A stretch of DNA of 64,000 nt from Calditrichota bacterium (GTDB lineage: Bacteria > Calditrichota > Calditrichia > Calditrichales > J004): assembly GCA_003696775.1 (NCBI GenBank), contig RFFS01000015.1, positions 10,386-74,385 of the forward strand. The letters run 5' to 3'. This document shows positions 12 through 64,000 of the stretch, one piece after another. Under the pieces are notes generated by a model. It was not told the DNA's origin. It made no database searches and was given only the letters and a program-made list of their open reading frames with translations. Numbering within the stretch: the stretch's first letter is position 1; each line of letters opens with the position of its first letter. The translations under genes and the position numbers were made by a program.

Positions 12-1860
12 ATGGCTGATAGTAAATATAATGATCCCCGATTCCGACCGTCCACATTAGTCGAATTATTACGCTGGCGCGCCGTCACCAAACCCAATGA
101 ACGCGCGTTTACATTTTTACTGGACGGTTCAAAAAAAGAATTACGTTTAACCTATGCCGATCTCGACCGAAAGGCCCGTGCCTTTGGCGCCATGCTGCAA
201 AAACGCGGCCTTAAAGGGGAACGCGCCCTGCTGCTTTATCCCCCGGGAATGGATTATATCATCGCGTTTTTCGGATGTCTTTACGCCGGTGTCATCGCCG
301 TGCCGGCCTATCCGCCGGACCCCAACCGCCTGAACCGCACCCTGCCGCGCCTGCAGGCGATTGTCCGTGATGCCAACGCCACCGTGGCTTTGACCAACGA
401 TTCCATTATGTATATGATCCGGATTTTAAAACTGGGCAGTCGCTTTTCAGATTCTATGGAAAAATTGCCCTTTCTGCGCAAATTCCGGACAACCATGAAC
501 TTTTTCGCCGCTTCCAAAAGCGGCGTGGCCGATGCCAATGAACTGGGTGATCTGCTCTGGATTTCTTCCGATGATGTTCTGGACCATTTTGCCGATAATT
601 GGCACGAACCCGATATCACCTCCGACACCATTGCATTTTTACAATACACTTCCGGTTCCACCGGTATGCCCAAAGGTGTTATTCTCAATCATGCCAATCT
701 ACTGGCCAATTCCGCCGATATATACACATCATTCGGTTATTCCGATAACACGGAAGGGGTGATCTGGCTGCCCATCTATCACGACATGGGCCTGATCGGC
801 GGAATCATCCAACCCATATACGGCGGCATGGCCACCACCCTGCTCTCTCCGATTCATTTTCTGCAAAAACCGTTGCGCTGGCTGGAAGCCATCAGCCGTG
901 TTAAGGGTAAAAACGTGGTGAGCGGCGGCCCTAACTTTGCCTATGACCTTTGCGTTAAAAAAGTCACCCCCAAACATCTGCAAACACTTGACCTGAGCAA
1001 CTGGTCCGTGGCCTTTAGCGGCGCGGAACCCGTCCGCTACGAGACGGTGGAACGCTTTTACCAAACATTTAAGGATAACGGGTTCCGGAAGGAAGCCTTC
1101 CTTTCCTGTTACGGTTTGGCCGAAGCCACCCTTTATGTAACAGGTGTGGATTATAAAAAAGTACCGCCCATTACCCATCTGAATTTAAAAGAACTGCGTA
1201 AAAACAAAGCCGTTGTGGTCGATCCTTCCCACCCCGATGCCCAGAATATGGTGAGCTGCGGGCGCACCCCCGAAGACCAACGCGTGGAAATCGTTAACCC
1301 GGAAACCAAAGAACGCGTTCAGCCCGGAGAAACAGGCGAAGTGTGGATACAGGGGCCGAATGTCGCCCAGGGATACTGGAAAAATGAAGAAGCCACCCGG
1401 GAAACCTTTCAGGCTTTCATCAAAGGTAGTCAGGACGGGCCCTTTCTGCGCACGGGCGACCTGGGTTGCGTGATAGACGGCGAACTGTACATCACGGGCC
1501 GGGCCAAAGACCTGATCATCATCCGCGGACGTAACTATTATCCCCAGGATATTGAATTTTTAGTGGAGAACGCCCATCCCGAAATACGTCCCGGCTGCTC
1601 CGCCGCCTTTTCCATTGAAGAAAATCAGGAAGAGAAACTGATTATTGTGGCCGAAGTACGCCATGCAAAAAACCAACCTTACGAGGAAATAATCTCGGCC
1701 ATTCGGCAAACGGTGACCGAAACCAATGACATCCGTGTTCATTCCATAGTATTGATCAAGGCACGCACCATAGCCAAAACCTCCAGCGGTAAAATTCAAC
1801 GTCATGCCGTTAAAAATGAATACCTTGAAGGAACCCTTAAGGTGGTACACAGTTGGCAGG
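12..1860 (+). other. Fatty acyl-AMP ligase (FAAL) loading domain
   Basis: N-terminal PRFRPSTLVELLRWRA..ERAFTFL, AMP-binding core YTSGSTGMPKGV, TGDLG, SSGKIQRH. Followed directly by an ACP, not a C domain. Confidence 0.8.
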
Positions 1861-11890: not shown

Positions 11891-14800
11891 ATGCACACAC
11901 ATATCAACCCGGATACGGATATTGCCGTCATCGGCATGGCAGGTATATTTCCCGATGCGCCCGACGTGGCGACTTTTTGGAATAATCTGACTCAGGGGAA
12001 AGAATGTATCACGGCATTCGATCCGGAGGCGTTGCGCCAGGCCGGCGTGCCGGATGATCTCATTCAGGACCCGGCGTACATTCCCCGACGCGGCATCATT
12101 GACAACCCCACCGGTTTTGATGCCTATTTTTTTGATTACGCCCCCAACGAGGCGGAAATCATCGATCCGCAACAACGGCTGTTCATGGAAACAGCATGGA
12201 AAGCTCTGGAAGATGCCGCCTGTAATCCGGAAAGTTATGAAGGTTTGATCGGACTTTTCGGCGGTGTGAGTATGAACACCTACCTGTACCGTTATCTGGC
12301 CGCGCGCGGACAGGGTTTTTCCAGCGCCGAAGGCTATCAACTGGCCATTGGAAACGATAAGGATTTCCTGACGACCCGCCTTTCTTACAAATTCAATCTG
12401 CGCGGCCCCAGTGTGGATGTGCAAACCGCCTGTTCCACTTCATTGGTTTCCGTTGTGCTGGCCTGTCAGAACCTGCTTAATTACAGTTGCGACATGGCTT
12501 TGGCCGGTGGCGCTTCCGTTACCATACCGCAGGAACAGGGTTATATGTATCAGGAAGGGATGATCTTATCACCCGACGGTCATTGCCGCCCGTTCGACGC
12601 CAAAGCACGCGGCACCATAAGTGGAAACGGCGTGGGCGTGGTGGTTTTGAAACGCGCCGTCGAGGCGCTGGAAGATGGCGACCATATTTATGCCATCATC
12701 AAAGGCGCCGCCTATAATAATGACGGTGCGCAACGGGTGGGTTATACGGCACCAAGCGTGGATGGTCAGGCCGATGTCATCGCCACGGCACAGGCTCTGG
12801 CCGATGTTTCACCGGACGATATCAGCTATGTGGAATGCCACGGCACCGGCACGGAAATGGGCGACCCCATTGAAATAACCGCATTGAAAAGCATTTTTGC
12901 CGCGGACGGCTTCACACCAAATTCGTGCGCCATCGGTTCGGTTAAAAGCAATATCGGGCATCTCGACGCCGCTGCGGGCATCGCGGGATTTATTAAAGCC
13001 GTACTTTGTCTTTATCATAAAAAACTGGTGCCCACACTTCATTATCAGTCACCCAATCCGCAAATCGATTTTGACCAAACGCCCTTTTATGTTAATACCG
13101 CGTATCGGGACTGGCCGACAGGCGCTTTACCACGCCTGGCAGCGGTGAGTTCTTTTGGAATAGGCGGTACCAATGCCCATGTAATTGTACAGGAAGCGCC
13201 CGTACAGCCCCATGCGGAAGAGCCGGGGCCGCACTTGTTATGTCTTTCCGCTAAAACCACATCCGCCCTGGATGCCATGACCACGCGTCTCGCGGATCAT
13301 CTGGAAAACAATCCCGATATTTCCCTGGCCGATACGGCTTATACCCTATTGATCGGTCGTAAACATTTTAGTCAGCGCCGCATGGTTTGCGCGGTGGATA
13401 AACACGAAGCCGTTCGTTTGTTACGTGGGGAAGACCCTCAACGCCTGCTGGGTATGGGTCATAAAAAAGACCCCGCTCCGCCACAAACCGCCTTTTTGTT
13501 TTCCGGTCAGGGCAGTCAGTATCCTTTGATGGGCAAGGGATTGTATGAACGTTACACAGTTTACCGACAGGCGGTTGATCAATGTGCCGATTTGCTTAAG
13601 CCCCATATCAATAAGGATATCCGCGAACTGCTGTATCCCAAAGGAGATATGGAAAAAGCGGCAAAAGAATTAAACCGAACGGAGTACACGCAACCGGCTC
13701 TTTTTGTTACCGAATATGCCCTGGCGCGGCTTTGGGCTTCGTTTGGTATCCGTCCGCGGGCCATGGCCGGTCATTCCATCGGTGAATATGTAGCCGCTCA
13801 TCTGGCCGGTGTCTTTTCTCTCGAGGATGCGCTCAAGCTTGTCGCCCGCCGCGGTGCCCTTATGCAATCCTTACCCACGGGAAGCATGCTCAGCGTGCCC
13901 CTGGATGAACATGATGTCCGTGACTGGTGTACCGATGACGTGGTGGTGGCCACGGTTAACAGCAAGGGCGCCACCGTGCTTTCCGGCCCGGAAACGTCCA
14001 TCCGGGACGTGGCGGCGGCTCTGCGAGAAAAAGGTATTGAAAGCCGTTTGTTGCATACTTCACATGCCTTTCATTCTCCGATGATGACGCCCATTTTGGA
14101 TGAATTTGAAGCCTATTGCCGCACCATTGCATTTAAGGCGCCCACACTCGATTATTTGTCCAATGTAAGCGGTACCTGGATTACAGCGGAAGAGGCCACC
14201 GACCCCGCATATTATGCCCGTCACCTGCGATCCACCGTCCGTTTTTATGACAACCTGACGGCACTGTATCGTGACTTTAAAGGAATTTTACTGGAATGCG
14301 GGCCGGGTAAAACACTGCAATCGTTTGCTACCCGACATCCAGAAAAAAGTCTGGATCAGGTTCTTCTGACCTCGATGCGTCATCCGAAAGACGCAACCGA
14401 TGACGTGATATTTTTTATGACAGCGCTGGGGCGTTTCTGGCTGGCGGGCCAGCCATTGGAAGCCGATACTTTATTCCATGTTTCCGAACGACGTAAATGC
14501 CCGTTGCCCACTTATCCGTTTGAGAAAAAACATTATTTACTGCCCATACCCAAAGGCGATGTTATTCCACCCACAACGGCAAACCATCCCCCCACACAAT
14601 GGTTTTACACCGGTTATTGGAAACCGGATTTCAGCCAACTTAGGCATGATGAGCCGCTTAAAGCACGACGGAGCGGCGTTACGGCTACGGAATTAAAGAA
14701 TATACAGGATGTGTCCGCGGATGAAGCCATCGTAACGGTTTGGCAGCCGGACCCTACACGCCCCCTGAATGATCTGTACGGTGAATTAGCCAATCTTTGT

Positions 14801-16231
14801 ACTCAATTAAGTTATAACCCGGGTCATCGCCTTATCGTCGTCAGTGATAAGGTATTTCGGGTACTACCCGGAGAAGAGGGCGTGCCCCATGTGGCCGCAT
14901 TGACCGGCCTGTTGCGTTCGTTTGTTGTGGAAGAAAGTCGTTTTTCCTTTACCTGGATCGATACGGATGATTTGCCCCGGTTGGCACCCGGCGCTTTTAA
15001 CAACGGCATCTATGTCAACCGAATTATTGCCCTGCGCGGCGGCCAGCCCTACCGTAGGGAATTTGAACATATAAACGTTTCTTCCAACATATCCTTCCGG
15101 ACACAAGGCCACCCACGGGTGTTGATCACAGGTGGCACCGGCCAACTGGGGGCCTTGTGGGTGGATTACATCAGCAAACAATCCCCCGCGGATTTTTACC
15201 TGTTGAGTCGCAACGGTTTTCCTCCGGCTGAGCAATGGCCTTCCATGGGTAAAACCCATACGGCTTATAACCGGGCGATGATTTTCAGCGCGGCAGAAAA
15301 GCGTGGCAGCCGCATTCGTTTCATTACAGCGGATATGGGCGACACACAACAATTGGATCATACACTGAACAATTTAGACAAGCCCGATATCATCATCCAT
15401 GCCGCGGGACTGGTGGGTGAGGCCGCCATTCATCCTTTGTCTCAAGCAAAACAAGAGAATCCGGTTGTATTTGATGCCAAGGTGAACGGTACCAACCATC
15501 TTATCAAGTGGGCACGTGACAAAAAATGCCCTCTGGTTATTTTACAATCGTCCTTATCAGCGGAACTTGGCGGATATGGATTTTCCGCTTATGCCACAGC
15601 CAATGCCTATATGGATCAATTAACCGGCACATCGGATGAAACCCATATCATTACAATCAACTGGGATGGATGGCGTTTTGATACGGAAGATACAGATAAT
15701 GGTATCCCCAGAGAAGCCGCCGTTACCTTGTTTGACGGAGTTTTTAGCAACAGTCATCTTACACAAATCATTGTCTCTACCGAACCGTTACGGCAACGCA
15801 TGTTGACCTGGCAATACGATCGATCCAAAGCGGATGAAACTGTTACGGAAAACCGTGCTTTATATGATCGTCCCAATTTGCCCACGGCCTATGTGCCGCC
15901 AGAAAATGATCTGCAGGAAGAAATCGCTGCCGTTTGGCAAAATCTCCTGGGTATAGGTCAGGTGGGCATCCATGACGATTTCTTTGATCTCGGAGGCAAT
16001 TCCCTGATGGGCACGCAGCTCATCTCTCGAATGCGGGAACGTTTTAAGGTGGATGTGCCGGTTAAAGCTCTTTTTGAGAACCCGACAATCGCGGGAGTCA
16101 GTGCATTGATCGAAGCAGAACGGGAAAAAGGTCAAAAGCAGGAAGATGTTTTGGCCGACATGCTAAACAAAGTGGAAAACATGAGTCCCGAACAAATCGC
16201 GGCTATGTTAAATCAACAAAAAAAAGATTAA
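11891..16231 (+). CDS. PKS module (1446 aa): KS-AT-KR-carrier, no DH or ER
   Basis: ORF-track ORF starting 5 nt after the upstream stop. KS QTACSTSL/CHGTGT/NIGHLD, AT GHSIGE plus HAFHS, KR VLITGGTGQLG and SAYATANAY, carrier DFFDLGGNSL (NRPS-type T signature). Confidence 0.93.
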   Translation: MHTHINPDTDIAVIGMAGIFPDAPDVATFWNNLTQGKECITAFDPEALRQAGVPDDLIQDPAYIPRRGIIDNPTGFDAYFFDYAPNEAEIIDPQQRLFMETAWKALEDAACNPESYEGLIGLFGGVSMNTYLYRYLAARGQGFSSAEGYQLAIGNDKDFLTTRLSYKFNLRGPSVDVQTACSTSLVSVVLACQNLLNYSCDMALAGGASVTIPQEQGYMYQEGMILSPDGHCRPFDAKARGTISGNGVGVVVLKRAVEALEDGDHIYAIIKGAAYNNDGAQRVGYTAPSVDGQADVIATAQALADVSPDDISYVECHGTGTEMGDPIEITALKSIFAADGFTPNSCAIGSVKSNIGHLDAAAGIAGFIKAVLCLYHKKLVPTLHYQSPNPQIDFDQTPFYVNTAYRDWPTGALPRLAAVSSFGIGGTNAHVIVQEAPVQPHAEEPGPHLLCLSAKTTSALDAMTTRLADHLENNPDISLADTAYTLLIGRKHFSQRRMVCAVDKHEAVRLLRGEDPQRLLGMGHKKDPAPPQTAFLFSGQGSQYPLMGKGLYERYTVYRQAVDQCADLLKPHINKDIRELLYPKGDMEKAAKELNRTEYTQPALFVTEYALARLWASFGIRPRAMAGHSIGEYVAAHLAGVFSLEDALKLVARRGALMQSLPTGSMLSVPLDEHDVRDWCTDDVVVATVNSKGATVLSGPETSIRDVAAALREKGIESRLLHTSHAFHSPMMTPILDEFEAYCRTIAFKAPTLDYLSNVSGTWITAEEATDPAYYARHLRSTVRFYDNLTALYRDFKGILLECGPGKTLQSFATRHPEKSLDQVLLTSMRHPKDATDDVIFFMTALGRFWLAGQPLEADTLFHVSERRKCPLPTYPFEKKHYLLPIPKGDVIPPTTANHPPTQWFYTGYWKPDFSQLRHDEPLKARRSGVTATELKNIQDVSADEAIVTVWQPDPTRPLNDLYGELANLCTQLSYNPGHRLIVVSDKVFRVLPGEEGVPHVAALTGLLRSFVVEESRFSFTWIDTDDLPRLAPGAFNNGIYVNRIIALRGGQPYRREFEHINVSSNISFRTQGHPRVLITGGTGQLGALWVDYISKQSPADFYLLSRNGFPPAEQWPSMGKTHTAYNRAMIFSAAEKRGSRIRFITADMGDTQQLDHTLNNLDKPDIIIHAAGLVGEAAIHPLSQAKQENPVVFDAKVNGTNHLIKWARDKKCPLVILQSSLSAELGGYGFSAYATANAYMDQLTGTSDETHIITINWDGWRFDTEDTDNGIPREAAVTLFDGVFSNSHLTQIIVSTEPLRQRMLTWQYDRSKADETVTENRALYDRPNLPTAYVPPENDLQEEIAAVWQNLLGIGQVGIHDDFFDLGGNSLMGTQLISRMRERFKVDVPVKALFENPTIAGVSALIEAEREKGQKQEDVLADMLNKVENMSPEQIAAMLNQQKKD
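11915..13200 (+). other. Ketosynthase (PKS module 2, aminoacyl-accepting position)
   Basis: DIAVIGMAGIFPDAP, QTACSTSL, CHGTGTEMGDPIE, NIGHLDAAAG, GGTNAHVIVQEAP. Confidence 0.9.
13487..14340 (+). other. Acyltransferase, malonyl-type
   Basis: FLFSGQGSQY, GHSIGE (about 13767..13784), HAFHS (about 14060..14077). Confidence 0.8.
14600..15680 (+). other. Ketoreductase (structural plus catalytic subdomains)
   Basis: VLITGGTGQLGALW (about 15115), SSLSAELGGYGFSAYATANAY. No DH or ER motifs between AT and KR. Confidence 0.75.
15905..16115 (+). other. NRPS-type T domain terminating a PKS module
   Basis: AYVPPENDLQEEIAAVWQNLLGIGQVGIHDDFFDLGGNSLMGTQLISRMRERF. This is the YVAP..E..W..L..G..D.FF.LGG.SL pattern of PCPs rather than the GxDSL pattern of PKS ACPs. 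Confidence 0.75.
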
Positions 16232-16471: not shown

Positions 16472-19400
16472 ATGAGTTCTGTTTACGAACAAATTGCAAA
16501 CCTGCCCCCCGAAAAACGGGCGGTTTTGGAAATGATGTTACAGGAACAGGGTGTGGACCTGAGTCAGATGCCTATTTTGCCCGGGTCCGGTGACACCAGC
16601 GATTATCCGCTGTCATTTGCTCAGCAGCGTTTATGGTTTTTGGATCAACTGGAACCCGGATCGGCATTATATAATATCTGTTCGCCGGTACGCCTGCGTG
16701 GTAATTTGGATACCGACACCTTACACACTTCACTGGAAACCATCGTCCGGCGACATGCCGTTTTACGCACCACCTTTTACAAGGATGGCGCCGAACCCCG
16801 CCAAAAGGTACATGATGATATCCCCCTGAATTTCAAAATCATCGAATCATCCGATCCTGAAAAAATAAACGATCTGATCCGGGATGAAGCAGCCTACTCA
16901 TTCAACCTGGAACAGGAAGCGCCTGTCCGCATTCGTTTGTTTGTATTCGGACCAACGGATCATCTGTTGGTGGTCACCCTCCACCATATAGTTTCCGATA
17001 ACTGGTCAACCGGTGTGTTGATTCGTGAATTCATGGAATTGTATAATCAATCGCATCAAGGGCAAACACCTCAACTGACACCTTTAAAAGTGCAGTATGG
17101 TGATTTTGCCGCCTGGCAACGCAAATGGCTCAGTGGCAAAACCCTGGAACGGGAAGTAGCCTATTGGAAAGAAAAATTAGAGGGCTTGCCTCCTTTTTTG
17201 GATTTGCCCACCGATTTTCCACGACCGGCCTATCAAACGCATAATGGCGCGGCACAAAAACGTACGCTGGAAGCATCAACCGTTTCGGCACTGCGCTCCC
17301 TGGCCGATCAGAATGATGCAACCTTGTTTATGGTTTTAACAGCGGTATTTGAAGTTTTGCTATATCATTATAGCAAGCAAGATGATTTTGCCATAGGCAC
17401 ACCGATCGCTAACCGCAACCGGGTGGAAACGGAAGCCCTGATCGGTTTTTTCATAAATACTCTGGTGATCCGCGCGGATTTACAGGATATGCCAACGGTG
17501 AAAACACTACTGCAAAAAGTACGCGCTACCCTGCTCGAAGCCTATGCCCATCAGGATGTCCCTTTTGAGACCCTGGTGGAAAAACTCGATCCCGAACGCA
17601 GTATGAGCCATTCGCCGCTGTTTCAGACAATGATTGTATTAAACAATGCCCCGGTGGATACATTGAAACTTTCGGGACTCGAGCTGGAATTGCTTCATGC
17701 GGAAGACACTTCAAGTAAATTCGATCTGATCTTTAATTTTTATGAAGAAGAGGATCATATTTCCACTAAAGTCGAATACAATACCGATTTATTCCGTTCG
17801 GATACCATTACGCGCATGATCGACCACTTTCAACGACTGGCTTGCTGGATGGCTGAACATGCCGACACGTCAATTGACCGGGCCCGGCTCATGTCCACGG
17901 AAGAAGAGAGCGCCCTGTTGCAACAACTTGCGCGAAACGAAAGGATACTCCATTCCGAATCCTTACTGACGGATCTGATCCTGCAACAATGTAAGGTGCA
18001 GGGTGCCAAAGTAGCCTTAAAAAACGCGGAACATAGCCTGGATTATGCCGGTCTGGCACAGAGTATCCACGCCGTAAACACAATGTTAGCCGCAAAAAAC
18101 ATAACATCCGGTGATGTGGTGGCTGTTATGGCCCGCAGGCATCCGCTGACTGTGGCGGCCATGTTGGGCATCATGGCCCGGGGCGCTGTATTTTTGCCCC
18201 TGGACCCCGCCTATCCTGCTGAACGCCTGCGTTTTATGCTGGAAGACAGCGGCACACAATGGATATTATCGAATGATCCCACATCGCCAATCGAACTACA
18301 GCTTGTGGCCGGGCGTCCCTTGGAAATATTGGAAATACCCACTACCGCACCCGAAAAATTACCTGACATCGCGCGGACACCCGAAGCTCAGGCATATCTG
18401 ATTTATACATCAGGATCCACCGGACACCCCAAAGGGGTACGGGTCAACCAACAGGCCATCACCGACCACAGCGTGGATATGAAAAACTATTTTGAACTGA
18501 ATGAAAACGACGTAACATTACAATTCGCCGCCATGAATTTTGACGCGGCGCTGGAACAGCTATTTAGCCCCTTGCTGGCCGGCGCAACCGTGATCCTACG
18601 CGATGATGATATCTGGGCGCCGGAAATATTTTGCGACAAAATCAACGAACTGGGACTGACGGTTATCAACCCAACGACCGCTTACTGGAATCAATGGTGC
18701 GCCCATTTACCCGATAAAGACCACACGGGCTGTCCATCTCTGCGCCTTGTTATTTCCGGTGGCGATGCCATGCAACCTGCCGCCCTGGAAAAATGGCGGC
18801 ACTCATCATTAAGCAAAGTGCGGCTGATCAACGCGTACGGACCCACGGAAACCGTCATAACGGCAAGCTGTTATGATGTACCATCCGATGCACAGGCCCT
18901 GAAAGCCTATTATACTTTGCCCATCGGAACGGTAAACGCCAACCGTCATGCTTATATATTAGACGCTTCCGGACATTTGGCCCCACAGGGCATTCCCGGC
19001 GAACTCTGTATTGGCGGGACCAATGTAGCCATGGGGTACCATAACCGCCCGGAAGAAGAAGCCCGCGTCTTTGTCAACGATCCCTTTCATAAAGGTCGCC
19101 GTATGTATCGCACGGGTGATAAAGCACGCCTGGCCGCGGACGGCATGCTGGAATTTCTGGGGCGTATCGACCAACAGGTAAAAATACGCGGTTTTCGCGT
19201 GGAACCCGGTGAAATTGAATCCATACTGGCCGGTCATCCCGATTTGAGCGCCGTGGCGGTAGCGGTAAAGGAAGACGCCTTGGGCGAAAAACAACTGGTG
19301 GGGTATTTCATCCCCAAGGCAGGCAGTCAACCGGCCATACACGATCTGCGTGCTTTTATGCAAAGTCAATTACCCGCGTACATGGTGCCGGCGGCATTCA

Positions 19401-19825
19401 TCCAAATGGACACATTTCCCACATTGCCGGGCGGCAAAATCAATCGCCGCGCCTTGCCTGTTCCGGAAGACCTGCGCAGTCAGTTGAGCGCCGAATATGT
19501 GGCGCCGCGAACGGAAACGGAAGAGCAACTGGCCGCGATTGTGGCAAATGTGTTGCGCATCGAGAAAGTGGGCATACACGACAATTTTTTCGAACTCGGC
19601 GGTCATTCCATGCTCGGCACACAGGTCATGAGCACCATCCGCGAAACTTTCGGCGTGGAAATTCCCCTGCGCACCCTTTTTGAAAGCCCCACGGTGGAGG
19701 GCATAGCCCTGGCCATTACCGAAGCGTTGGCAGCCGGCATGGATAACGAAGAACTGGCCGGGATGCTGGATGAACTGGATGATTTATCCGATGATGAATT
19801 AAACGCCATGTTAAATGAAGAATAA
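16472..19825 (+). CDS. NRPS, one module (1117 aa): C-A-T with docking-like termini
   Basis: ORF-track ORF. C1 motif YPLSFAQQRLWFLDQ, HHIVSDNWS, A YTSGSTGHPKGV...GGKINRRALP, T FFELGGHSM, acidic C-terminal tail DELDDLSDDELNAMLNEE. Confidence 0.93.
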   Translation: MSSVYEQIANLPPEKRAVLEMMLQEQGVDLSQMPILPGSGDTSDYPLSFAQQRLWFLDQLEPGSALYNICSPVRLRGNLDTDTLHTSLETIVRRHAVLRTTFYKDGAEPRQKVHDDIPLNFKIIESSDPEKINDLIRDEAAYSFNLEQEAPVRIRLFVFGPTDHLLVVTLHHIVSDNWSTGVLIREFMELYNQSHQGQTPQLTPLKVQYGDFAAWQRKWLSGKTLEREVAYWKEKLEGLPPFLDLPTDFPRPAYQTHNGAAQKRTLEASTVSALRSLADQNDATLFMVLTAVFEVLLYHYSKQDDFAIGTPIANRNRVETEALIGFFINTLVIRADLQDMPTVKTLLQKVRATLLEAYAHQDVPFETLVEKLDPERSMSHSPLFQTMIVLNNAPVDTLKLSGLELELLHAEDTSSKFDLIFNFYEEEDHISTKVEYNTDLFRSDTITRMIDHFQRLACWMAEHADTSIDRARLMSTEEESALLQQLARNERILHSESLLTDLILQQCKVQGAKVALKNAEHSLDYAGLAQSIHAVNTMLAAKNITSGDVVAVMARRHPLTVAAMLGIMARGAVFLPLDPAYPAERLRFMLEDSGTQWILSNDPTSPIELQLVAGRPLEILEIPTTAPEKLPDIARTPEAQAYLIYTSGSTGHPKGVRVNQQAITDHSVDMKNYFELNENDVTLQFAAMNFDAALEQLFSPLLAGATVILRDDDIWAPEIFCDKINELGLTVINPTTAYWNQWCAHLPDKDHTGCPSLRLVISGGDAMQPAALEKWRHSSLSKVRLINAYGPTETVITASCYDVPSDAQALKAYYTLPIGTVNANRHAYILDASGHLAPQGIPGELCIGGTNVAMGYHNRPEEEARVFVNDPFHKGRRMYRTGDKARLAADGMLEFLGRIDQQVKIRGFRVEPGEIESILAGHPDLSAVAVAVKEDALGEKQLVGYFIPKAGSQPAIHDLRAFMQSQLPAYMVPAAFIQMDTFPTLPGGKINRRALPVPEDLRSQLSAEYVAPRTETEEQLAAIVANVLRIEKVGIHDNFFELGGHSMLGTQVMSTIRETFGVEIPLRTLFESPTVEGIALAITEALAAGMDNEELAGMLDELDDLSDDELNAMLNEE
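18036..19460 (+). other. Adenylation domain, unassigned code DAENIGAITK (acidic pocket residue; basic substrate suspected)
   Basis: FDAALEQ (D,A,E), VINPTT (N), VISGGD (I,G), NAYGPTETVIT (A,I,T). Shares D-A-E-x-I-G with the Lys code DAESIGSVCK as I recall it. Confidence 0.35.
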
Positions 19826-19845: not shown

Positions 19846-22800
19846 ATGAGTGATATTTCTAAAAAGCTGCAAAATCTGACACCGGAACAACGGGAACTGT
19901 TACTAAAAAAGCTGCGGGCCAAAAAAGCACAACAACAAACAACCCCGGAGACGGGTATTCCGAAGCGTCCGGAAAGTGCCGGCTATCCCCTGTCCCATGC
20001 CCAGGAACGGCTATGGTTCTTTGATCAACTGGCGCCCGGCAGCGCCTTATATAACATCAGCGCGGCTGTTTTATTCAGCGGCAGACTCGACACCCTAGCC
20101 CTCGAAAAAAGCATTCAAGCCGTGGTGGAACGTCATCAGGTGTTACGTGTCGCGTTTAAAACCGAAAACGGCGCGCCCGTTCAGGAACTCAACAAAAACC
20201 TTACCATCCCGCTTCAGGTAACCTCCGCTGACGGTCGCCCGCTGGAAGAGATCGCAGCCGAAGAAGCCCAAACACCATTCGATCTTACCCGCGCGCCGTT
20301 GCTGCGTGCCCGTTTAATCACACTCGACGATGAACGCAACGCGCTTTTACTAACCATCCATCATATCGTTGCCGATGGCTGGTCCATGGGGGTCTTCATC
20401 AACGAAACAGCCCGATTCTATCGCCGTTTTACGGGCGATGAGTCGGTTACGGTCGATCCGTTACCCATCCAATACTTCGACTATGCCCATTGGCAAAAAG
20501 AACGCATGGATCGTCCCGAACTAAAACAACAACTGGATTACTGGAGCGATGCCCTTAAAGGCATGCCGGTTCTTCTGGAACTCCCCCTGGATCATCCGCG
20601 CGGCGCGCTGCAAACATTTAAGGGGCGACACCATCATTTTACAATTGACTCAAAAACCACACAGGCCTTGCGTGATCTTTCCAGGCAAGAAGGCACAACT
20701 TTATTTATCACTCTGTTGGCCGCTTTCCAAACCCTGCTATATCGTTATGCCAATCAGGATGATTTTGGCGTGGGCATTCCCATAGCCAACCGTAATAAAA
20801 AAGAATTGGAAGCCCTTATCGGCTTTTTTGTCAACACACTGGTCATCCGCGCCCAACCCCGCGCCGACCAAACATTTGGCGCATTTCTTCAACAGGTCAG
20901 GCAAACCGCTTTCCGGGCATACGATAATCAGGATATCCCCTTTGAAAAAGTTGTGGAACGGGTTCAACCTAATCGCGATAATCAGGTTGCTCCTTTATTT
21001 CAGATGATGTTTGAACTTCAGGGTGACGCCCTCGGCGGCTTGAATTTTGGCAATCTAACACTGGAAAACATTCCCTTCGAAACGGGCACGGCCAAATTTG
21101 ACCTGCTGTTAATTATGGAAGAAAGCCGTGAAACACTCGGCGGCATCATGGAATATAATGCCGATTTATTCGAATCTTCCACGATTGAAAGGATGATGGG
21201 ACATTTTACACACATACTGAAACAGGTCGCCCGCCATCCCGATACACCTTTATCCGCCATCCGTTTGTTGGACGAAAAAGAGCAACGCCATATCCTGAAG
21301 GATTGGAACGATACGGCTGTGCCCTACCCCGCAAAGCCCTTTATCCATCAATATACAAAGCAACATGCACTAAAACGTCCCGGTCATCCCGCCCTTGTTT
21401 ATGATGAAGGCATTATGGATTACGCGCGTTTTGAGGCCCTGACCAACAAACTGGCCCATGCTTTGATCAAAATGGGCATAAGTTGTGACGACCGTATAGG
21501 CGTTTGCATGGAACGCGCTCCGGAAATGGTGATCGCCCTGCATGGCATCCTAAAAGCCGGCGGTGCTTATGTGCCATTTGATCCGCATCATCCGGAAGAC
21601 CGCCGCGCATTCATGATGGAAGATTCCGGTATCCGTTTGATGCTGACACAACCGGCTTTGCACCATTTATTTGATAATAAACCCATCGAATGCCTGGTGC
21701 TCGACAGAACTTTTGAAACCCTGGGTGATTATCCGGAAGATGAGCCGGGCATCAAGATAGACGGTGATCAATTGGCCTATATGATTTATACTTCCGGTTC
21801 CACCGGCAAGCCAAAGGGCACCCTTTTGGCCCATAAAAGCATCCTTAACCGCCTGCAATGGATGCAGGAGGCCTATAAGCTGACTCCGGACGATGTAGTT
21901 CTACAAAAAACACCCTACAGCTTTGATGTTTCGGTATGGGAATTTTTCTGGCCGTTTATGCAAGGCGCCACACTCGTGGTGGCCCGGCCGGAAGGTCATA
22001 AGGATACGGGATATTTAACCGATGTGATACGCCGACAAGGTGTAACCACCATGCATTTTGTTCCACCCATGCTTAAGGTATTTCTGGAAGACCCGGACAG
22101 CCGGTCCTGTGTTTCCCTTAAGCGGGTAATATGTTCCGGCGAGGCCTTGCCCTATGCCCTGAGTGAGAAATTTTACGAACAGTTACCCCGGGCTACCCTC
22201 TACAACCTGTATGGCCCCACGGAAGCCGCTGTGGATGTTACCGCCTATACATGTCCCGTAAAACGAGCTGACATGCGCTTGCCCATAGGCGTGCCCATAG
22301 CCAACACCGGCATTTACATACTCGACAAAGCCTTAAACCCTGTACCGCCGGGTGTGGGGGGCGAATTACATATCGCGGGCGTGCAGTTGGCCCGCGGCTA
22401 TGCCAACCGCCCTGATTTGACAGCGGAGAAATTTATACCCGACCCGTATTCCGAACAACCCGGCAGCCGTATGTACAAAACCGGTGATTTATGCCGCTAT
22501 CTTGACAACGGAGAAATCGAATACCTGGGACGTTTGGATCATCAGGTCAAGATTCGTGGTTTCCGTATTGAACTGGGCGAGATCGAGACCACTTTGCGCC
22601 AACATCCGGATATTCAAGATGCCCTGGTCCTGGCACGCGGTCAGGGTGAAGAGAAGACCTTAATCGCCTGGTATATCACACCTGACGGAGACGATCCGGG
22701 CAGCGAAAACTTATCTGTTCATTTACGTCAACATATGCCGGACTATATGGTGCCGTCGTTTTTCGTTAAAATCGATACCTTTCCACTGACCGCCAACGGA

Positions 22801-28768: not shown

Positions 28769-29722
28769 ATGAATGATAAACAAATACCCAACGGTATTCT
28801 TGTAAGCGGATTGGTGCGTTCCGGCACCACCTGGACAGCGCGCATGCTGAATTTTTCCCCACAAACCATTTTTGTGCTGGAACCTTTCAACATATTGCGT
28901 GATCCCATCCATTTGCTCAAGGCCGGCACCAATTATCCCTATTGGTCTCATCCGGATGCACACATTTTTCAAAAAATCCGAAGCGGCGTCGGTTTAAGTT
29001 TTACACCGGAAGAGTTCAGGATTTTCATGAAAGAATCTTCCTCGTTCAAATATCATCTGTATCATCTCGTACGCTATATAACACTCAACCGCCGTATAAA
29101 AAAAGGGATGCGCCCGGTGGTTCAGGACCCGTTCGCCATATTCATGGCCCCCTGGCTTTACGAAAAGCTAAGTTTGCGTCCCCTGTTTCTTTTTCGTCAT
29201 CCGGCGGCCTATATCAACAGCATGAAACGCATGAAATGGGGCTTTAATTTTGACTGGCTGGCGCGACGGGAATCCTTGATGGAGGGGGTGTTATCTCCTT
29301 TCAAGGATGAAATCCTGAAATGGGCGCCGAAGGCATTCATCCCTTTTTCCATTGAAACCCAGTGTCTGGTCTGGAATATCTTTACCGGCATCATGCTAAC
29401 CTACCGTGATACTTATCCGGACTGGTTGTTTTTTCGCCATGAAGACCTTTCCATGGAACCGGTGGCTCATTTTAAAAAAATTTATCACGAATTGGGTTTC
29501 CCTTTCAGCGCACCGATTATAAAAAAAATAGAAGAATTCACGGGTACCGGGAACACGGTCGAAGCCAAATCCGGTAAAATGCATACCCTTAAACGAAACA
29601 ACCGCGCCAATGTAAAATTATGGCAAAAACAACTGGAACCGGCCGAAATCACGCTTATTCGCAAACAGACGGAACAGGTGGCCGCACGTTTATATGACGA
29701 CGACTCCTGGCCGAAATTATGA
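28769..29722 (+). CDS. Stand-alone PAPS-dependent sulfotransferase (317 aa from ATG 28769)
   Basis: In frame with ORF-track ORF 28685..29722. N-terminal GILVSGLVRSGTTWTARML (5'-phosphosulfate-binding loop). FVLEPF, FLFRHPAAYINSMKR and FFRHEDLSMEP parallel [21 protein letters not shown] and [11 protein letters not shown] of the embedded ST domain. ATG 28769 lies 16 nt after the upstream stop. Confidence 0.8.
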   Translation: MNDKQIPNGILVSGLVRSGTTWTARMLNFSPQTIFVLEPFNILRDPIHLLKAGTNYPYWSHPDAHIFQKIRSGVGLSFTPEEFRIFMKESSSFKYHLYHLVRYITLNRRIKKGMRPVVQDPFAIFMAPWLYEKLSLRPLFLFRHPAAYINSMKRMKWGFNFDWLARRESLMEGVLSPFKDEILKWAPKAFIPFSIETQCLVWNIFTGIMLTYRDTYPDWLFFRHEDLSMEPVAHFKKIYHELGFPFSAPIIKKIEEFTGTGNTVEAKSGKMHTLKRNNRANVKLWQKQLEPAEITLIRKQTEQVAARLYDDDSWPKL

Positions 29723-44014: not shown

Positions 44015-47000
44015 ATGGAAAATGTACAGGATATTTATCCCCTGTCGCCCATGCAGCAGGGGATGTTGTTTCATACTTTATACGCACCGGAAAGCGCGAA
44101 TTATACCGAACAAATGAGCGCTGAATTTAACGGGCCGCTTAACATTACAGCCTTCCGGCAGGCCTGGCAATGCGTGCTCGATCGTCATGATGTGCTGCGC
44201 AGCGCCTTTGTCTGGGAAGATGTGGATGAACCGCTGCAGGTGGTGCATGAATCCCTGGAAATCCCTTTTGAACTCCTGGACTGGAGCGGCATCCCGGATG
44301 AGACTTTTCGCGACCGTTTTGAAAAGTTGAAAATTAAAGAACGTGAGCAGGGGTTCGATCTGACCGACGCGCCGCTGTTGCGTGTAAAAATTGTTAAGCA
44401 GGACGCACATCGCCACGGATTTCTTTTCACCTATCATCATATTTTATTAGACGGATGGGCCATGCCCATCGTACTCGGCGAATTATTTAGTCTGTACGAC
44501 GCCAATGATAAAAACAAAACACCCGATTTGCCTCCTGTCCGCCCTTTTAAACACTATATCGCCTGGCTGCGGGAACAGGACAAGGATCAAGCGGATCGCT
44601 TCTGGCGCGATCGATTAAGCGGCTTTTACAGCACCACGCCTCTTGTGGTGGATCATCCGCCGTTGGAAGGCGTCCGACCATACATCAAAAAACATTATGA
44701 ATGTGGCGTGGAAACGAGCCAGGCCCTGCATTCCTTTGTCCGCGAAAATAAATTGACTTTAAATACGGTCATGCAAGGCGCGCTGGGTTTGGTACTGGCC
44801 TATTACAACCGCACCGATGATGTGGTGTTCGGCGCGACGGTTTCCGGACGTCCCTCGGAAATTCCGGGCATCGAAAGCATGGTGGGTTTGTTTATCAACA
44901 CCCTGCCCGTGCGCGCGCGTTTCGATTACAGGGAAAAACTGATCGATTATCTCAAACGGCTGCACGCGGAACAAAATGAAGCCCGGGTTTACGAATACAC
45001 CCCTTTGGTGGATATAAAAAAAGTCAGTGAACTCTCCGATGATCAACCGTTATTCGAAACGCTGTTTGTATTCGAAAACTATCCGGTGGATGAATCGGTC
45101 AAACAGCAAAAATCGGATATCCATATTACCGATGTGGCTGTTTTTGAACGTAGCAACTATCCTTTAACCGTAGTGGCGTCTTCCGGCATGCCGTTAGCAT
45201 TGCAAATGGCTTTTGATACCGCCCGTTTATCCGAAAAAGCGGTGGATCGGCTGGCCGGTCACCTCATCCGTGTCCTACAAACCCTGATTGAGCAACCCGA
45301 CGTTTCGATAAAGGACATACGCTTTATAACCGAAGCCGAGGAGAAGAAACTTCTTGAAGAGATGAATGCCACCCGACGGCCGTATCCAGCGGATAAAACC
45401 GCCATTCAATTATTTGAAAAAATGGTCGCTTTGTATCCCCGCAATCGGGCCGTGGAGCATAATGATGATCATTTAACCTATGAAGCCCTTAACCATCGCG
45501 CCAACGGATGGGCCGCTTATTTGCGCAAACAGGGTGTGACCCCGGGTGGTTTCGTGGCGCTTTGCCTGCCCCGTTCCGTCGATATGATCACGGCCACCCT
45601 GGCCATACTGAAATGCGGCGCGGTGTATATTCCCATCGATATGGAATATCCCGTGGAGCGCATTCAATACATCGTCAACGATTCCAATGCCGGTCATGTG
45701 ATCACTACCGATGCCATCCATGACGCCGCCGGATTGGATGTGACGTTGATCTCCTTAAAGGAATTGCGGCAACAAGAGGCGGTGAACGAAAATCCGCCTG
45801 TCATGATAAGTGCCGATGCCCCGGCCTATATGATATATACTTCCGGTTCCACCGGAAAACCCAAAGGCGTTCTTTTACATCACAAAGGTCTTTCCAATAC
45901 CATCCACGCCCAAATAGAAGATTTTGGCATCACACCGCAATCCAACGGGCTGCAATTTGCCAGTTACGGTTTTGACGCGGCGGTCAGCGAGGTCTTTTCC
46001 TGTCTGATGGCCGGCGCCACGCTGCATATCGTGGAAAAGGAAACCATTCTTAACATAGACGCCTTCAGCGCGTTTTTAAAAGAGCATAAAATTTCATATG
46101 TCACCTTGCCGCCATCCCTGCTGACGCTCCTGGCCAACAGGGATTTTCCCGATCTTAAAACCGTTATTTCCGTGGGCGAGGCCTGCTCCCGCGCCCTGGC
46201 CCAAAAATGGAAAGACCGTTACCGCTTCATCAACGGATACGGCCCCACCGAGGCCACCATCGGCTGTGTTTGGAGTGTTGTAGAAAACTTGCCGGTCGAA
46301 GCGCGCACGGCGCCCATCGGCCGTCCCATATACAATGACAGGGTTTATATAGTGGACCCGTTTATGCGCCCCACACCCGTGGGCGTCCCCGGTGAGTTGT
46401 GCATCGCCAGTCCCGGATTGGCCATCGGATATCATAAACGCCCCGATCTCACGGCGGAAAAATTCATCAACAACCCTTTTTCCACGGATGAAGGCGCCCG
46501 AATATACCGCAGTGGCGACCTGGCCCGCTGGCTCGATGACGGGGTAATTGAATTCATCGGACGAATTGATTTTCAGGTAAAAATTCGCGGTAACCGTATT
46601 GAATTGGGTGAAATTGAAGCGGTTTTAAATGACTATGAAGCCGTTCGTGACGCTGTGGTCATCGCTCTGGGTGACGCGCCGGAAAGGATGCGACTGGCAG
46701 CTTATATCATCCCCGCCGGGGATAGCGTGGACCTGACCGCTTTGCGCGGTTATCTGACCGAAAAGCTACCCGACTATATGCAGCCCGCAGCTATCACCGT
46801 CATGCAGGCTTTTCCTCTCACACATAACGGAAAAGTAAACCGCCGCGCGTTGCCGGAACCCGACTGGGAGGCTCAAAGCGAAGATAACACCACGACCGCG
46901 GCCACCACTCCCGTGGAGGATGTGTTGCTTTCTCTGTGGCGCGATGTGTTAGGGGTAACAACCTTGTCAGTACATGATAACTTCTTCCATTTGGGCGGGC

Positions 47001-50000
47001 ATTCCCTGCTGGCCACCCAATTGGTATCCCGTATCCGTGATGCCTTTGATGTGGAAATCCCCCTAAAGAAACTCTTTGAACAGCCGACCGTCGCGCATCT
47101 GGCCGGGCTCATCCAACAAGCCCGACAAAACGAACGGGGCTTTACCCTGCCGCCGCTTACCGCAGGCCCGCGTCCGGAACATATCCCCTTATCCTTTGCC
47201 CAGCAACGTTTGTGGTTTCTGGATCAGCTCCAACCCGGCGGCACTTTTTACAATATCCCGTCCGCTTTCCGGATCGAAGGACCGCTGCAAGACAAGGCGC
47301 TGGAAAATGCGCTGGCTTCGCTCATGCAAAGACATGAAATCCTGCGCACCACTTTCGCTGAAAACGGTGGTAAACCACGTCAGATCATACATGAAGATAT
47401 GCCTCTGCCCCTGTCCCGTGAAGACCTGAGCGACGTGCCCCGGACAACCCTTGACGATGAAATCCGTGAACGGGTTCGAAAGGATGCGCTTCATGTGTTC
47501 GATTTAACAACCGGCCCTCTTTGGCGGGCATGTTTGTACAATATCGGAGATAATCAACATATATTCTCCCTTAACCTGCACCATAGCATCGCCGACGGTT
47601 GGTCGATGGGTATTTTCATGGCCGAACTTGCCGAACTGTATCGTTCCGCGGTGGAAGGGTCGCCCGCCCGTTTGCCGGACCTGGAGGTTCAATATGCCGA
47701 CTATGCCTTATGGCAACAAAACTGGCTGCAGGGTGAAATACTCACACAACAACTGAACTATTGGCGTGAAACGATCGGTGAAGACCCGCCTGTTTTGGAA
47801 CTGCCGCTGGATTGCCCGCGTCCGGCTGTACAAACCTTTAACGGCGCGGCTTTGACGCACACCCTGCCCGATGATCTCAGCCGGAAAATTTTTGAAGAAA
47901 GCGCCGCTTTCGGTGTAACGCCCTATATGCTGATGCTGGCCGCCTTTCAGGCCCTGTTGCATCGTTACAGCGGTCAGGATACCGTCATCGTCGGTTCCCC
48001 GGTGGCCAACCGGAACCATAGCGGCACCGAAGGGCTTATCGGCTTCTTTGTCAACAATCTCATCATTAAAAGCGATTTTTCCCAACAACAGGCTTTTGAA
48101 ACGCTATTACTTGATGTACGCGATACCATGCTGGAGGCCTACGCCCATCAGGATGTGCCCTTTGAGAAAATAGTGGATGCCCTGGTCACCCGTCGCGACA
48201 CCAGTCATGCGCCCATTTTTCAGGTAATGTTCGTCTATCAAAACCTGCCACAACAGGAGGCCACGACTTCCGATATCCACTTGCAACAACTGGAATATGA
48301 ATCCGTTACATCAAAATTCGACTTGTCCGTGACCATTAATCCCGCGGAAACGGGCATGGCCTGGCAATTCGAATACAATACGGACCTGTTCAATGCCGAT
48401 ACCATTGAACGTATGATGCACCATTATGAAAACTTTTTGCGTGAAGCGTTGGAAGATAGCGAGCAATATATTCATGAAATCGATTATTTAAGTGAAGAAG
48501 AAACCCGTTTATTAACGGAAAACTGGAACCGGACATCTTCTCCTTTTGAACAGGAAAAATGTGTTCATGAACGATTTGCCATGCACGTAAGCGCGCAGCC
48601 GGATCATCCCGCGTTGCAATTCGGCGAGAAACGCATGAGTTATCGGGAGCTGGATCAACGCTCTTCGGAGCTGGCCGCTCAACTTTTGGAAAAAGGCGTG
48701 CATACGGAAACACGGGTCGGCATCTGCCTGCATCGTTCCTTTGAGATGTTCATCTCCATTCTGGGGGTGATGAAGGCCGGTGGCGCTTATCTGCCTCTGG
48801 ACCCGGGTTATCCCTCCGAACGGCTGGCTTATATGATGGACGACGCCCGCACACCGGTTGTATTGACAAGCGGTGATACGCAAACCCTTTTGGAACCGGT
48901 GATTACGACATTACAACAGCCCCCCGTCTTGTTAAATGTGGAAGAATTGACCACCGCGCCTCCGTCGGCCTCGTTACCGGATATCTCACCGGAAAATCTG
49001 GCTTATGTGATCTATACATCCGGTTCCACGGGCCGTCCCAAGGGGACATTGCTGAACCACAAGGGTTTGGTGAACCTGGCTGAAATTCAACGTCAAAAGT
49101 TCGGAATCTCCCCCCAAAGCCGTATCCTGCAATTTTCTTCTTTCAGTTTTGACGCCTCCGTATGGGAATTGGTTATGGCATTGTTAAATGGCGCTACCCT
49201 GGTGTTGATGCAACAGGAAACAGCCGTTTCCGGAGACGCCCTGACCGATTTGATGGCGCAGCAGTCTGTTACGACCGTCACCTTGCCGCCGTCGGTTTTA
49301 TCCGTATTCCCGGATAAGGAACTGCCAGACTTACAAACCATCATAACCGCCGGCGAAGCGTGCAGCGCGGAGTTGGTTAAAAAATGGGGCCGCGGCCGTC
49401 GTTTTTTCAACGCTTACGGTCCCACGGAAACAACCGTTTGCGCGTCCATGTACGAAGCCTCTCCGGAGGCGGATACCGCGCCGCCCATCGGCAACGCCAA
49501 TCCCAATTTTCGCTTATATGTTCTGGATGACCACGGCGCCCTTGTTCCGGTGGGCATACCCGGTGAATTATGTGTGGGCGGTGTGGGACTGGCCCGCGGT
49601 TATCATAACCGTCCGGAACTGACCGCCGAAAAATTCATTCCCGACAGATATTCAGGCATCCCAGGCGCGCGGTTGTACCGTACCGGTGATCTGGTGAAAC
49701 GACGACCGGACGGTAACATTGAATTTCTGGGACGCATCGACCATCAGGTGAAGGTACGCGGTTTTCGTATTGAACTGGGCGAAATTGAAGCGGTGCTGGC
49801 CGGCATGGATGGGATTCGTGATGTGATTGTCCTGGCCCGTGAAGACCGGCCGGGTGAAAAACGTCTTGTGGCCTATTGTGTCACCGATCCTTCCATGGAG
49901 ATCAATGTTTCGGCTGTAAAGAATCATGCGCGGAAACATTTACCGGATTATATGGTGCCGGTGCATTTTATGATGTTGGCATCCATGCCTTTAACGCCCA

Positions 50001-50392
50001 ACGGTAAAGTGGATCGAAAAGCCTTGCCCGCCCCGGAGGGAGATCGTAGTCAGTTGAATGTTGAATTCATTGCCCCGAGAAATGAAACCGAAGAAAAACT
50101 GGCGGCTATCGTCAGTGAATTACTCCATGTGGAAAAAGTGGGGGTTTATGATAACTTTTTCGATCTCGGTGGGCATTCGCTTTTGGCCACGCAATTCATG
50201 TCGCGCATACGAAGCACGTTCGACATCGAACTGCCTTTGATGACCTTATTTGAAAAGCCGACCATTGCCGACTTAAGCGATCAGGTGGAGATAGCCAGGG
50301 CCAGTGGCATGAAAGCCAAGCCTAAAATTGAAAAGATTGAAAGGGCCGCGCGTCCGACGGCACGTCGCCCTGCGCGCCGGTCAAGAAAATAA
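44015..50392 (+). CDS. NRPS, two modules (about 2125 aa from ATG 44015): DCL-A(?)-T-LCL-A(Phe)-T
   Basis: ORF-track ORF 44003..50392. I prefer ATG 44015 because GAGGA at 43997..44001 is 13 nt upstream of it, whereas TTG 44003 is only 1 nt after that motif. [13 protein letters not shown] plus HHILLDGWA (DCL), [66 protein letters not shown], basic C-terminal tail. Confidence 0.9.
   Translation: [2125 protein letters not shown]
44030..45310 (+). other. DCL-type condensation domain
   Basis: [23 protein letters not shown] (HH at about 44434). Follows the E domain of the previous protein. Confidence 0.75.
45472..46857 (+). other. Adenylation domain, unassigned code DASTIVGIGK
   Basis: FDAAVSE (D,A,S), VTLPPS (T), VISVGE (I,V), [11 protein letters not shown] (G,I,G). 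The D-A-S-T start resembles Tyr-type codes, but Gly at 322 and 331 does not match any code I can recall. Confidence 0.3.
48635..50030 (+). other. Adenylation domain, Phe code DAWTIAAVCK
   Basis: [30 protein letters not shown]. Confidence 0.7.
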
Positions 50393-50550: not shown

Positions 50551-50598
50551 CCACTCAGGCACGAAGACACTAAGTTCTTTCTCTTGGCGTCTTTGTGG
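50551..50598. repeat. Intergenic imperfect palindrome, cassette 2 unit 3
   Basis: CCACTCAGGCACGAAGACACTAAGTTCTTTCTCTTGGCGTCTTTGTGG. Confidence 0.8.
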
Positions 50599-50622
50599 TA
50601 TAAATGAAAAAAACGAACGCAT

Positions 50623-64000: not shown

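Follow-up and report, generated by a model that had tools for sequence, protein, structure and literature searches.

A predicted FAAL-PKS-NRPS assembly line for a sulfated, statine-containing lipopeptide in an uncultivated Calditrichota, with a CurM-type sulfotransferase inside an amino-acid module

The 64,000-nucleotide stretch analyzed here (positions 10,386 to 74,385 of contig RFFS01000015.1, Calditrichota bacterium assembly GCA_003696775.1; hereafter, the window) is very likely the core of a single hybrid biosynthetic gene cluster of an uncultivated Calditrichota, in which a FAAL, polyketide synthase (PKS) modules, and nonribosomal peptide synthetase (NRPS) modules would build one chain colinearly and sulfotransferases (STs) would decorate it at the expense of 3'-phosphoadenosine-5'-phosphosulfate (PAPS). 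The G + C content of the window is approximately 52%, and nine co-directional open reading frames (ORFs) on the plus strand, g1 to g9, occupy 99.1% of it. Domains were called with Pfam on chunks of approximately 1000 amino acids and then re-annotated by hidden Markov models (HMMs) built from the window's own domains. The resulting string was FAAL-ACP-KS-AT-DH-ER-KR-ACP-[C-A-T], KS-AT-KR-ACP, 13 more C-A-T modules, and a TE, with totals of 14 A, two E, one in-line ST, one free ST, and one TE domain. All 14 C, 14 A, and 14 T domains retained the HHxxxD site, the core motifs together with Lys517, and the serine of GG(H/D/N)S, respectively. Domain order, catalytic motifs, A-domain codes, the pairing of E with DCL-type C domains, ST homology, and conservation across metagenome-assembled genomes (MAGs) were computed directly; from these, we infer the chemistry of each step, the targets of the STs, the retention of sulfate, and the accessory genes on the window's own contig.

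The chain is predicted to start on g1 (12..11885, plus strand, as are all genes below; 3957 amino acids), which encodes FAAL (12-1871), ACP (2001-2198), KS (2247-3536), AT (3849-4811), DH (4962-5846), ER (6627-7541), KR (7572-8141), ACP (8400-8603), C1 (8661-10019), A1 (10005-11528), and T1 (11559-11774) domains. The FAAL structures 7r7g, 3kxw, and FadD32 led the matches of the g1 start in the Protein Data Bank (PDB), with E values of 1e-158 to 1e-97; the NCBIfam FAAL models were its top specific matches, yet under their full-length cut-offs, and Pfam placed PF23024 and a PP-binding domain directly after it. The motifs of a fully reducing PKS module were all present, namely DTACSS, HGTGT, and NIGH in KS, GHSVG in AT, HxxxDxxxxP and DxxxQ in DH, HAGAGGVG in ER, and GGLGDLG and YAAAN in KR. 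This KR carries LSD and is thus of the B-type, in agreement with a DH in the same module. The AT motif, YAFH, is intermediate between HAFH (malonyl) and YASH (methylmalonyl), which leaves a slight uncertainty over the extender that the first PKS module uses. The second module is encoded by g2 (11891..16231, 1446 amino acids) and consists of KS (11906-13201), AT (13481-14446), KR (15101-15706), and ACP (15914-16126). The KS domains of both modules have the Cys/His/His triad, the g2 AT bears the malonyl signature HAFH, and the g2 KR has the NADPH and Ser/Tyr/Asn motifs. Because a Tyr-specifying module is followed by KS-AT(HAFH)-KR-ACP, the domain order predicts that g2 would extend Tyr by C2 and reduce the ketone to give a Tyr-derived γ-amino-β-hydroxy (statine-type) unit.

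The NRPS modules continue in g3 (16472..19825, 1117 amino acids; C2-A2-T2), g4 (19846..28752, 2968 amino acids; C3-A3-T3-ST-C4-A4-T4-E4), g6 (29738..36208, 2156 amino acids; C5-A5-T5-C6-A6-T6), g7 (36201..43976, 2591 amino acids; C7-A7-T7-C8-A8-T8-E8), g8 (44015..50392, 2125 amino acids from the ATG; C9-A9-T9-C10-A10-T10), and g9 (50623 to beyond 64000, at least 4459 amino acids; C11-A11-T11-C12-A12-T12-C13-A13-T13-C14-A14-T14-TE). The ORF of g8 opens with a TTG at 44003, upstream of the ATG. We aligned the 14 A domains to GrsA-PheA, whose 10 Stachelhaus positions had been verified beforehand, and assigned residues from our working knowledge of the canonical Stachelhaus/NRPSpredictor codes. 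Tyr was assigned to A1 (DASTIAAVCK) and to A13 and A14 (DASTVAAVCK), Ser to A3, A5, and A7 (DVWHISLVDK) and to A4 (DVWHISLIDK), Phe to A6 and A10 (DAWTIAAVCK), Asn to A8 and A12 (DATKVGEVGK), and Orn to A11 (DVGEIGSIDK). The codes of A2 (DAENIGAITK) and A9 (DASTIVGIGK) had no residue assigned, and a literature search on these two codes and near variants gave no match; the acidic residue at position 239 of A2 would suit a basic or polar substrate.

Two residues are well supported by the domain sequences as D-configured, D-Ser at residue 4 and D-Asn at residue 8, because the E domains E4 (27346..28647) and E8 (42549-43874) exceeded the TIGR01720 cut-off of 74.2 bits (126.7 and 138.6 bits, respectively) and DCL-type C domains come next. 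Both E domains have the HHxxxD, E(S/G)HGRE, and FNYLG motifs (HHLVVDA, ESHGRE, and FNYLG in E4), and in each case the next NRPS protein opens with a DCL-type C domain. These two C domains, C5 of g6 and C9 of g8, form a separate clade, being 36% identical to each other and 21-28% identical to the other 12 C domains. Both bear the PLSPMQEGMLFH N-terminus typical of DCL domains. In four other C domains the Gly of HHxxxDG is replaced: C1 (8661-10019) has HHIVSDM, C2 of g3 (16601-17920) HHIVSDN, C8 (39396-40733) HHIISDQ, and C12 (53887-55230) HHIISDD. Asn is the acceptor of C8 and C12 and of no other C domain.

The assembly line ends in the TE of g9 (63373-63999), which crosses the end of the window. 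As homologues of g9 measure 4518-4519 amino acids and 4459 are visible here, approximately 59 C-terminal residues lie outside the window, among them the GDH motif with the catalytic His of the TE. The nucleophile motif of this TE is SWSLG, not GxSxG, and the same motif occurs in two close relatives (loci L097 and L101). When T14-TE served as the query of a homology search, the matches were fragments of at most 501 amino acids, with no full-length g9 among them.

An initial annotation, made from the sequence letters and a list of ORFs, had proposed nine colinear genes with this domain string, FAAL initiation, a fully reducing first PKS module, a Tyr unit extended by C2 with a β-hydroxyl, D-Ser and D-Asn set by two E domains, and a single TE. 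Genes and string were re-derived identically by Pfam and our own HMMs, and the PDB matches of the g1 start, the complete set of KS, DH, ER, and KR motifs, the Tyr code of A1 ahead of the malonyl-type g2 module, and the TIGR01720 scores with the DCL pairing bear out the other proposals; only the TE has to be amended, being present at the end of g9 but incomplete within the window. The residue order proposed there (Tyr, ?, Ser, Ser, Ser, Phe, Ser, Asn, ?, Phe, Orn, Asn, Tyr, Tyr) agreed with the GrsA-PheA alignment at every position, both blanks included.

The cluster has relatives in the same phylum. The closest homologues of g5, the gene of the free ST, are 54-71% identical to it and all occur in MAGs labelled Calditrichia, Calditrichales, Calditrichaceae, or Calditrichota, in which the g3 tail, g4, g5, g6, and g7 are syntenic, including the T-ST-C arrangement. 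The relatives are 62-65% identical to the window in g4 and 47-56% identical in g6, and the architecture of g4 is the same in L002, L006, and L007. Their codes define a conserved core of Ser(ST)-Ser(E)-X-Phe-Ser, and the ST module is a Ser module in all four Calditrichota clusters for which the region is available. Residue 5 is Ser in the window, L006, and L007, and Asn in L002 and L005, while L008 is more divergent, with DVIIVGGVCK at residue 5 and DAEDVGSIIK at residue 7. The Asn-Tyr-Tyr-TE tail is kept in the closest relatives; in L085, the last code is DAETIAGVAK rather than that of the second Tyr. These predicted residue switches are natural module-level diversification inside a cluster family, and the window holds one of a small family of related, putative lipopeptide clusters in one phylum. 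This recurrence also bears on the notion that the cluster has decayed, or was assembled wrongly, and yields no product. Such a notion arises because the window comes from a metagenome contig and repetitive modules can confuse assemblers. However, all nine ORFs are open over 64 kb, every catalytic motif checked was intact, and gene order, sizes, and codes recur in independent MAG assemblies at 47-71% protein identity, so that we regard decay or mis-assembly as highly improbable. Conservation across several MAG lineages with small residue changes instead suggests a functional, evolving metabolite.

Accessory genes are found downstream in the relatives. In three lineages, the gene after the g9 homologue encodes a major facilitator superfamily (MFS) transporter. 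In L097-L101, this gene is followed by genes for MbtH, DUF2238, a type II thioesterase, a phosphopantetheinyl transferase (PPTase), two STs, a hypothetical protein, a GAF/sigma-54 activator, and a Ser/Thr kinase. The block spans 11413-20836 in L097, 11413-20781 in L101, and 11069-20692 in L085; the last shows this order too, except that it lacks MbtH and DUF2238 ORFs of 80 amino acids or more, and the sequence of L084 ends shortly past the MFS gene. The block also includes a 325-amino-acid protein and a 260-amino-acid protein, both without a family, and its Ser/Thr kinase has a PEGA domain; the sigma-54 activator and the kinase may regulate the cluster as a pair. The protein encoded by g5 is 100% identical to a protein on the 70,069-bp contig Ga0181961_1059580 of JGI metagenome 3300014822 (window position + 891), and 5.2 kb of DNA lies beyond the window on the same contig, which gives room for the genes up to the first downstream ST of the relatives' order. 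The window gave no exact 41-mer match in the GTDB genome collection, so its source is not one of the species-representative genomes. Exact-product look-ups of g1 and g3 matched no record, a metagenome scan brought up relatives but not the contig of the window, and an MFS search did not reveal a transporter on that contig.

The free ST is encoded by g5 (28769..29722), which lies between g4 and g6 and comprises 317 amino acids from the ATG at 28769 (327 amino acids from 28739 in the JGI annotation). Its Pfam support is marginal (PF13469, 28.7 bits versus a cut-off of 27). Among 14 homologues, the PAPS motifs GxxRSGTTW and RHPxxxxxS are invariant, and the g5 forms GLxRSGTTW and RHPAAYINS are invariant or nearly so. 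A profile comparison of the g5 family with the in-line ST by hhalign covered 240 columns with 83% probability and an E value of 8e-6. In addition, the top 50 PDB fold matches of an AlphaFold model of g5 (pLDDT 84) were all sulfotransferases, with TPST1/2 first and the CurM and OLS STs included. By motifs, profile, and modeled fold, g5 is thus assigned to the PAPS-dependent sulfotransferase superfamily. The resemblance of the model to TPST fits the three Tyr predicted in the peptide but is no evidence of Tyr specificity, because the TM value is approximately 0.5 and the identity 15%. The two STs encoded downstream in the relatives (approximately 355-365 amino acids) gave solid PF13469 matches. 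The predicted ST complement of the cluster family is therefore four, one in-line and three free, two of which probably lie beyond the window by synteny. As to the initial annotation, its cis and trans STs both hold, the former by CurM/OLS homology and the latter by motifs, profile, and fold; of the accessory functions that it had placed, if present, outside the window, MbtH, PPTase, transporter, and regulator were found in the downstream flanks of the relatives, which represent three lineages, but a PAPS-synthesis gene was not.

The most informative element of the locus is the in-line ST of g4 (23266..24165), which is located between T3 and C4. Its nearest solved relatives are, by a wide margin, the ST domains of CurM (PDB 4gbm, E = 3.9e-68) and OLS (4gox, E = 1.2e-64), with 38-43% identity. 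A motif alignment showed that it keeps the PAPS-binding loops of CurM/OLS and the Glu, that is, the 5'-PSB loop PPRSGSTLLR, SPPELD with the catalytic Glu, DKTPSY, and the 3'-PB motif RHPYAMIYS. In the CurM ST, Glu60 is said to be the catalytic base, and a role is likewise ascribed to His62, two residues further on. The CurM and OLS STs are activating enzymes, which sulfate a β-hydroxyacyl-ACP so that a TE can decarboxylate the chain and eliminate the sulfate (PMC3903477). As in these ACP-ST-TE systems, the g4 ST is fused directly after a carrier domain; however, CurM and OLS have a KR-ACP before the ST and a decarboxylating TE after it, whereas the g4 ST is embedded in A(Ser)-T-ST-C of elongation module 3, with neither a KR-ACP upstream nor a decarboxylating TE downstream. 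No terminal alkene chemistry is expected for the g4 ST.

In-line NRPS STs are known from cyanopeptolin OciA of Planktothrix (PMC2533009) and dysinosin DysB (PMC6520454), in both of which the ST is proposed to act on a unit bound to a carrier domain and to leave a stable sulfate ester there. The g4 ST resembles them by description in being embedded in an NRPS protein. In contrast, OciA and DysB act on a glyceric-acid starter supplied by a GA/FkbH-type domain, while the module ahead of the g4 ST is an ordinary C-A-T one for an amino acid, and Pfam detected no glyceric-acid (FkbH/GA) loading domain in g4 or elsewhere in the window. Judged from its domain context, the g4 ST thus misses both defining features of CurM/OLS, the upstream KR-ACP and the dedicated downstream TE, as well as the FkbH context of Oci/Dys. 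In sulfazecin biosynthesis (SulN/SulM), a T-domain-bound peptide intermediate is sulfonated before release; SulN is a free enzyme that N-sulfonates diaminopropionate, whereas the g4 ST is fused in-line, so the two are alike by description only. The only in-line NRPS STs that we found in the literature concern the sulfated glyceric-acid starters of cyanopeptolins and dysinosins, and the search found no study of an ST inside an amino-acid elongation module.

We searched 1.84 billion representative proteins with HMMER for homologues of the in-line ST, obtained 1,097 clusters at E < 1e-30, and annotated the best 150 (P0135-P0284) with our own HMMs; the following counts refer to these 150. Almost all were NRPS proteins in which an A-T pair precedes the ST, and the ST was followed by C in 68, by TE in 28, and by the protein end (often of a fragment) in 31. 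KR-ACP-ST contexts were limited to a handful, some of which were KS-AT-KR-ACP-ST-C. Several proteins had two STs, and ST-T-ST was also seen. The position of CurM His62 was Glu or Asp in approximately 80% of the NRPS-embedded STs, and His in three of about 160. Ser and Thr were the two commonest codes in ST modules: 35 of 99 ST modules had Ser/Thr codes, compared with 9 of the 79 modules without an ST in these proteins (odds ratio 4.3, p = 2e-4), and when Tyr-like codes were included, the counts were 44 of 99 versus 12 of 79. Dab- and Orn-like codes in some ST modules hint at possible N-sulfonation. The in-line ST is thus a member of a widespread clade that is apparently unstudied in amino-acid modules.

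From these data, we propose the following pathway. The FAAL would adenylate a fatty acid and load it onto the first ACP, and the fully reducing module of g1 would add one saturated C2 unit. C1 would then N-acylate Tyr1, and the g2 module, using malonyl, would convert Tyr into a 4-amino-3-hydroxy-5-(4-hydroxyphenyl)pentanoyl unit. The 13 further C-A-T modules would add X-Ser-D-Ser-Ser-Phe-Ser-D-Asn-X-Phe-Orn-Asn-Tyr-Tyr, and the type I TE would free the chain by hydrolysis or cyclization. The in-line ST after T3 would sulfate the carrier-bound intermediate with PAPS, and its timing within the assembly line would single out one of the four Ser residues. The free ST g5, and probably the two STs past the window, would add further sulfates, for which candidate sites are the phenol groups of the three Tyr, the statine hydroxyl, and the remaining Ser residues; the sulfates of the product would be retained. 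As target of the in-line ST, the Ser3 side-chain hydroxyl, leaving a stable O-sulfate, is the most likely one: Ser is kept in the Calditrichota clusters, Ser/Thr codes are enriched in ST modules, the hydroxyl is β to the thioester, stable in-line sulfation has precedent, and the timing gives regioselectivity among the four Ser.

Several observations weigh against this proposal. The codes of A2 and A9 lack an assigned residue, and the stereochemical type of the g2 KR is ambiguous, with neither LDD nor the W motif, so that the configuration of the statine hydroxyl is not fixed by sequence. The accessory genes were seen in relatives and are extrapolated to the window's contig, PAPS-synthesis genes were not seen in the downstream flanks of those relatives, and the source organism is uncultivated. 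Where CurM has His62 (PPELH), the in-line ST of the window has Asp (PPELD), as do all three Calditrichota homologues. Moreover, more than half of the homologous ST modules load residues without a hydroxyl group (Val/Ile-like, Gln, Dab, Orn-like, and Gly), and close architectural twins of g4, such as P0142, are among them.

As many ST modules load such residues, an ST need not act on the residue of its own module, and the 'Ser(ST)' of the initial annotation was an assumption as to the target. The in-line ST could spare Ser3 and instead sulfate an earlier hydroxyl, either the statine secondary alcohol or the Tyr1 phenol, while the chain is bound to T3. The statine alcohol, made by a KR, would be the closest chemical analogue of the CurM substrate, and in some representatives the ST indeed comes right after a KR (KS-AT-KR-ACP-ST-C). 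Proteins of the form C-A-T-ST-C-A-T-E whose STs are 52-64% identical to that of g4 carry ST modules with Val/Ile-like, Gln, or Tyr-like codes, and P0152 has its ST behind a module with the A2 code DAENIGAITK, one module earlier than in g4. However, the ST module specifies Ser in each of the four Calditrichota clusters mentioned above, the overall enrichment of Ser/Thr in ST modules is significant, and the statine hydroxyl would sit two residues away from the pantetheine arm. We consider an upstream target unlikely.

A further possibility is that the in-line ST is activating, as in CurM, with the Ser3 sulfate serving as a leaving group that is eliminated spontaneously or during C4 catalysis to give dehydroalanine (Dha). 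Position 3 would then be unsulfated, and the retained sulfates would come from the free STs only. The nearest solved relatives of the g4 ST are precisely the two known activating STs, the hydroxyl of Ser-S-T would be β to the thioester as in the CurM substrate, and Ser and Thr, the precursors of Dha and dehydrobutyrine (Dhb), are the top codes in ST modules. The C domains after STs also tend to pair with each other, the nearest relative being another post-ST C domain in 45 of 72 (base rate 40%); however, 70 of the 72 have the canonical HHxxxDG and none showed a special motif. Similarly, the residues of many ST modules cannot be dehydrated, the known in-line NRPS STs of cyanopeptolin and dysinosin yield stable sulfate esters, and the NRPS clade, including g4 with its Asp, mostly has Asp/Glu where activating STs have His62. 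We also considered whether A-T-ST-TE termini carry a CurM-like decarboxylating TE; the TE of P0164 matched generic NRPS and Pks13 TEs, and the CurM TE was not among its PDB matches. Loss of the Ser3 sulfate is thus improbable in our view. The broader form of this idea, in which carrier-bound Ser/Thr would be O-sulfonated as a leaving group to give Dha/Dhb at residue 3 and across the A-T-ST-C and A-T-ST-TE clade, we hold to be just as doubtful; if true, sulfation-elimination would be an undescribed NRPS tailoring logic, a counterpart of the phosphorylation and glutamylation routes of lanthipeptides and of alkene formation by CurM. A stable sulfate on Ser3 hence remains the preferred reading, and an answer to whether NRPS-embedded STs decorate or activate would improve structure prediction for many orphan clusters.

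The enzyme classes of the locus are all known, its logic is textbook colinear assembly, and orphan NRPS-PKS clusters are common in MAGs. FAAL-ACP initiation, PKS extension of the lipid, and a long NRPS part are shared with the lipopeptide lines of puwainaphycin/minutissamide and mycosubtilin/iturin, and extension of an amino acid by KS-AT-KR-ACP to a γ-amino-β-hydroxy acid is shared with the NRPS-PKS-NRPS lines of didemnin and thalassospiramide. In contrast to these examples, the window has no aminotransferase, and its residue order, four STs, and Calditrichota origin match none of them. Because an aminotransferase is lacking, the lipid would be an N-acyl cap rather than a β-amino fatty acid. 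The locus stands apart in its phylum, in its CurM-type ST within an amino-acid module, and in a predicted chemistry that joins an N-acylated head of the statine type to a Ser-rich core and a Tyr-Tyr tail, with as many as four sulfates. As a tetradecapeptide that is N-acylated, contains a statine unit, is rich in Ser and Tyr, and may bear four sulfates, the predicted molecule would be chemically unusual. A search of the literature (as distinct from MIBiG and BiG-FAM) on Calditrichota NRPS, STs in NRPS, and sulfated lipopeptides found no characterized match, and no natural product tied to a Calditrichota NRPS cluster was found there.

As for the remainder of the window, the five largest minus-strand ORFs (185-353 amino acids) had no Pfam family and were treated as antisense artefacts, and an Rfam scan of the window gave no match. 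The only two sizeable intergenic gaps, between g2 and g3 (16232-16471) and between g8 and g9 (50393-50622), are both packed with two to three tandem copies of an imperfect palindrome of 65-79 nucleotides, CCACGAAGACACTAAG ... CTTAGAGTCTTTGTGG, with an A-rich tail. No Rfam match, sigma-70 promoter, or intrinsic terminator consensus was found in these gaps, and the 15-mer core of the palindrome was absent from the 96 loci searched for it. Its 22-mer core had five matches versus zero expected, and the g8-g9 gap folded better than shuffled sequences (z = -3.0). The palindromes look like hairpin elements of this genome of the repetitive extragenic palindrome (REP) or miniature inverted-repeat transposable element (MITE) kind.

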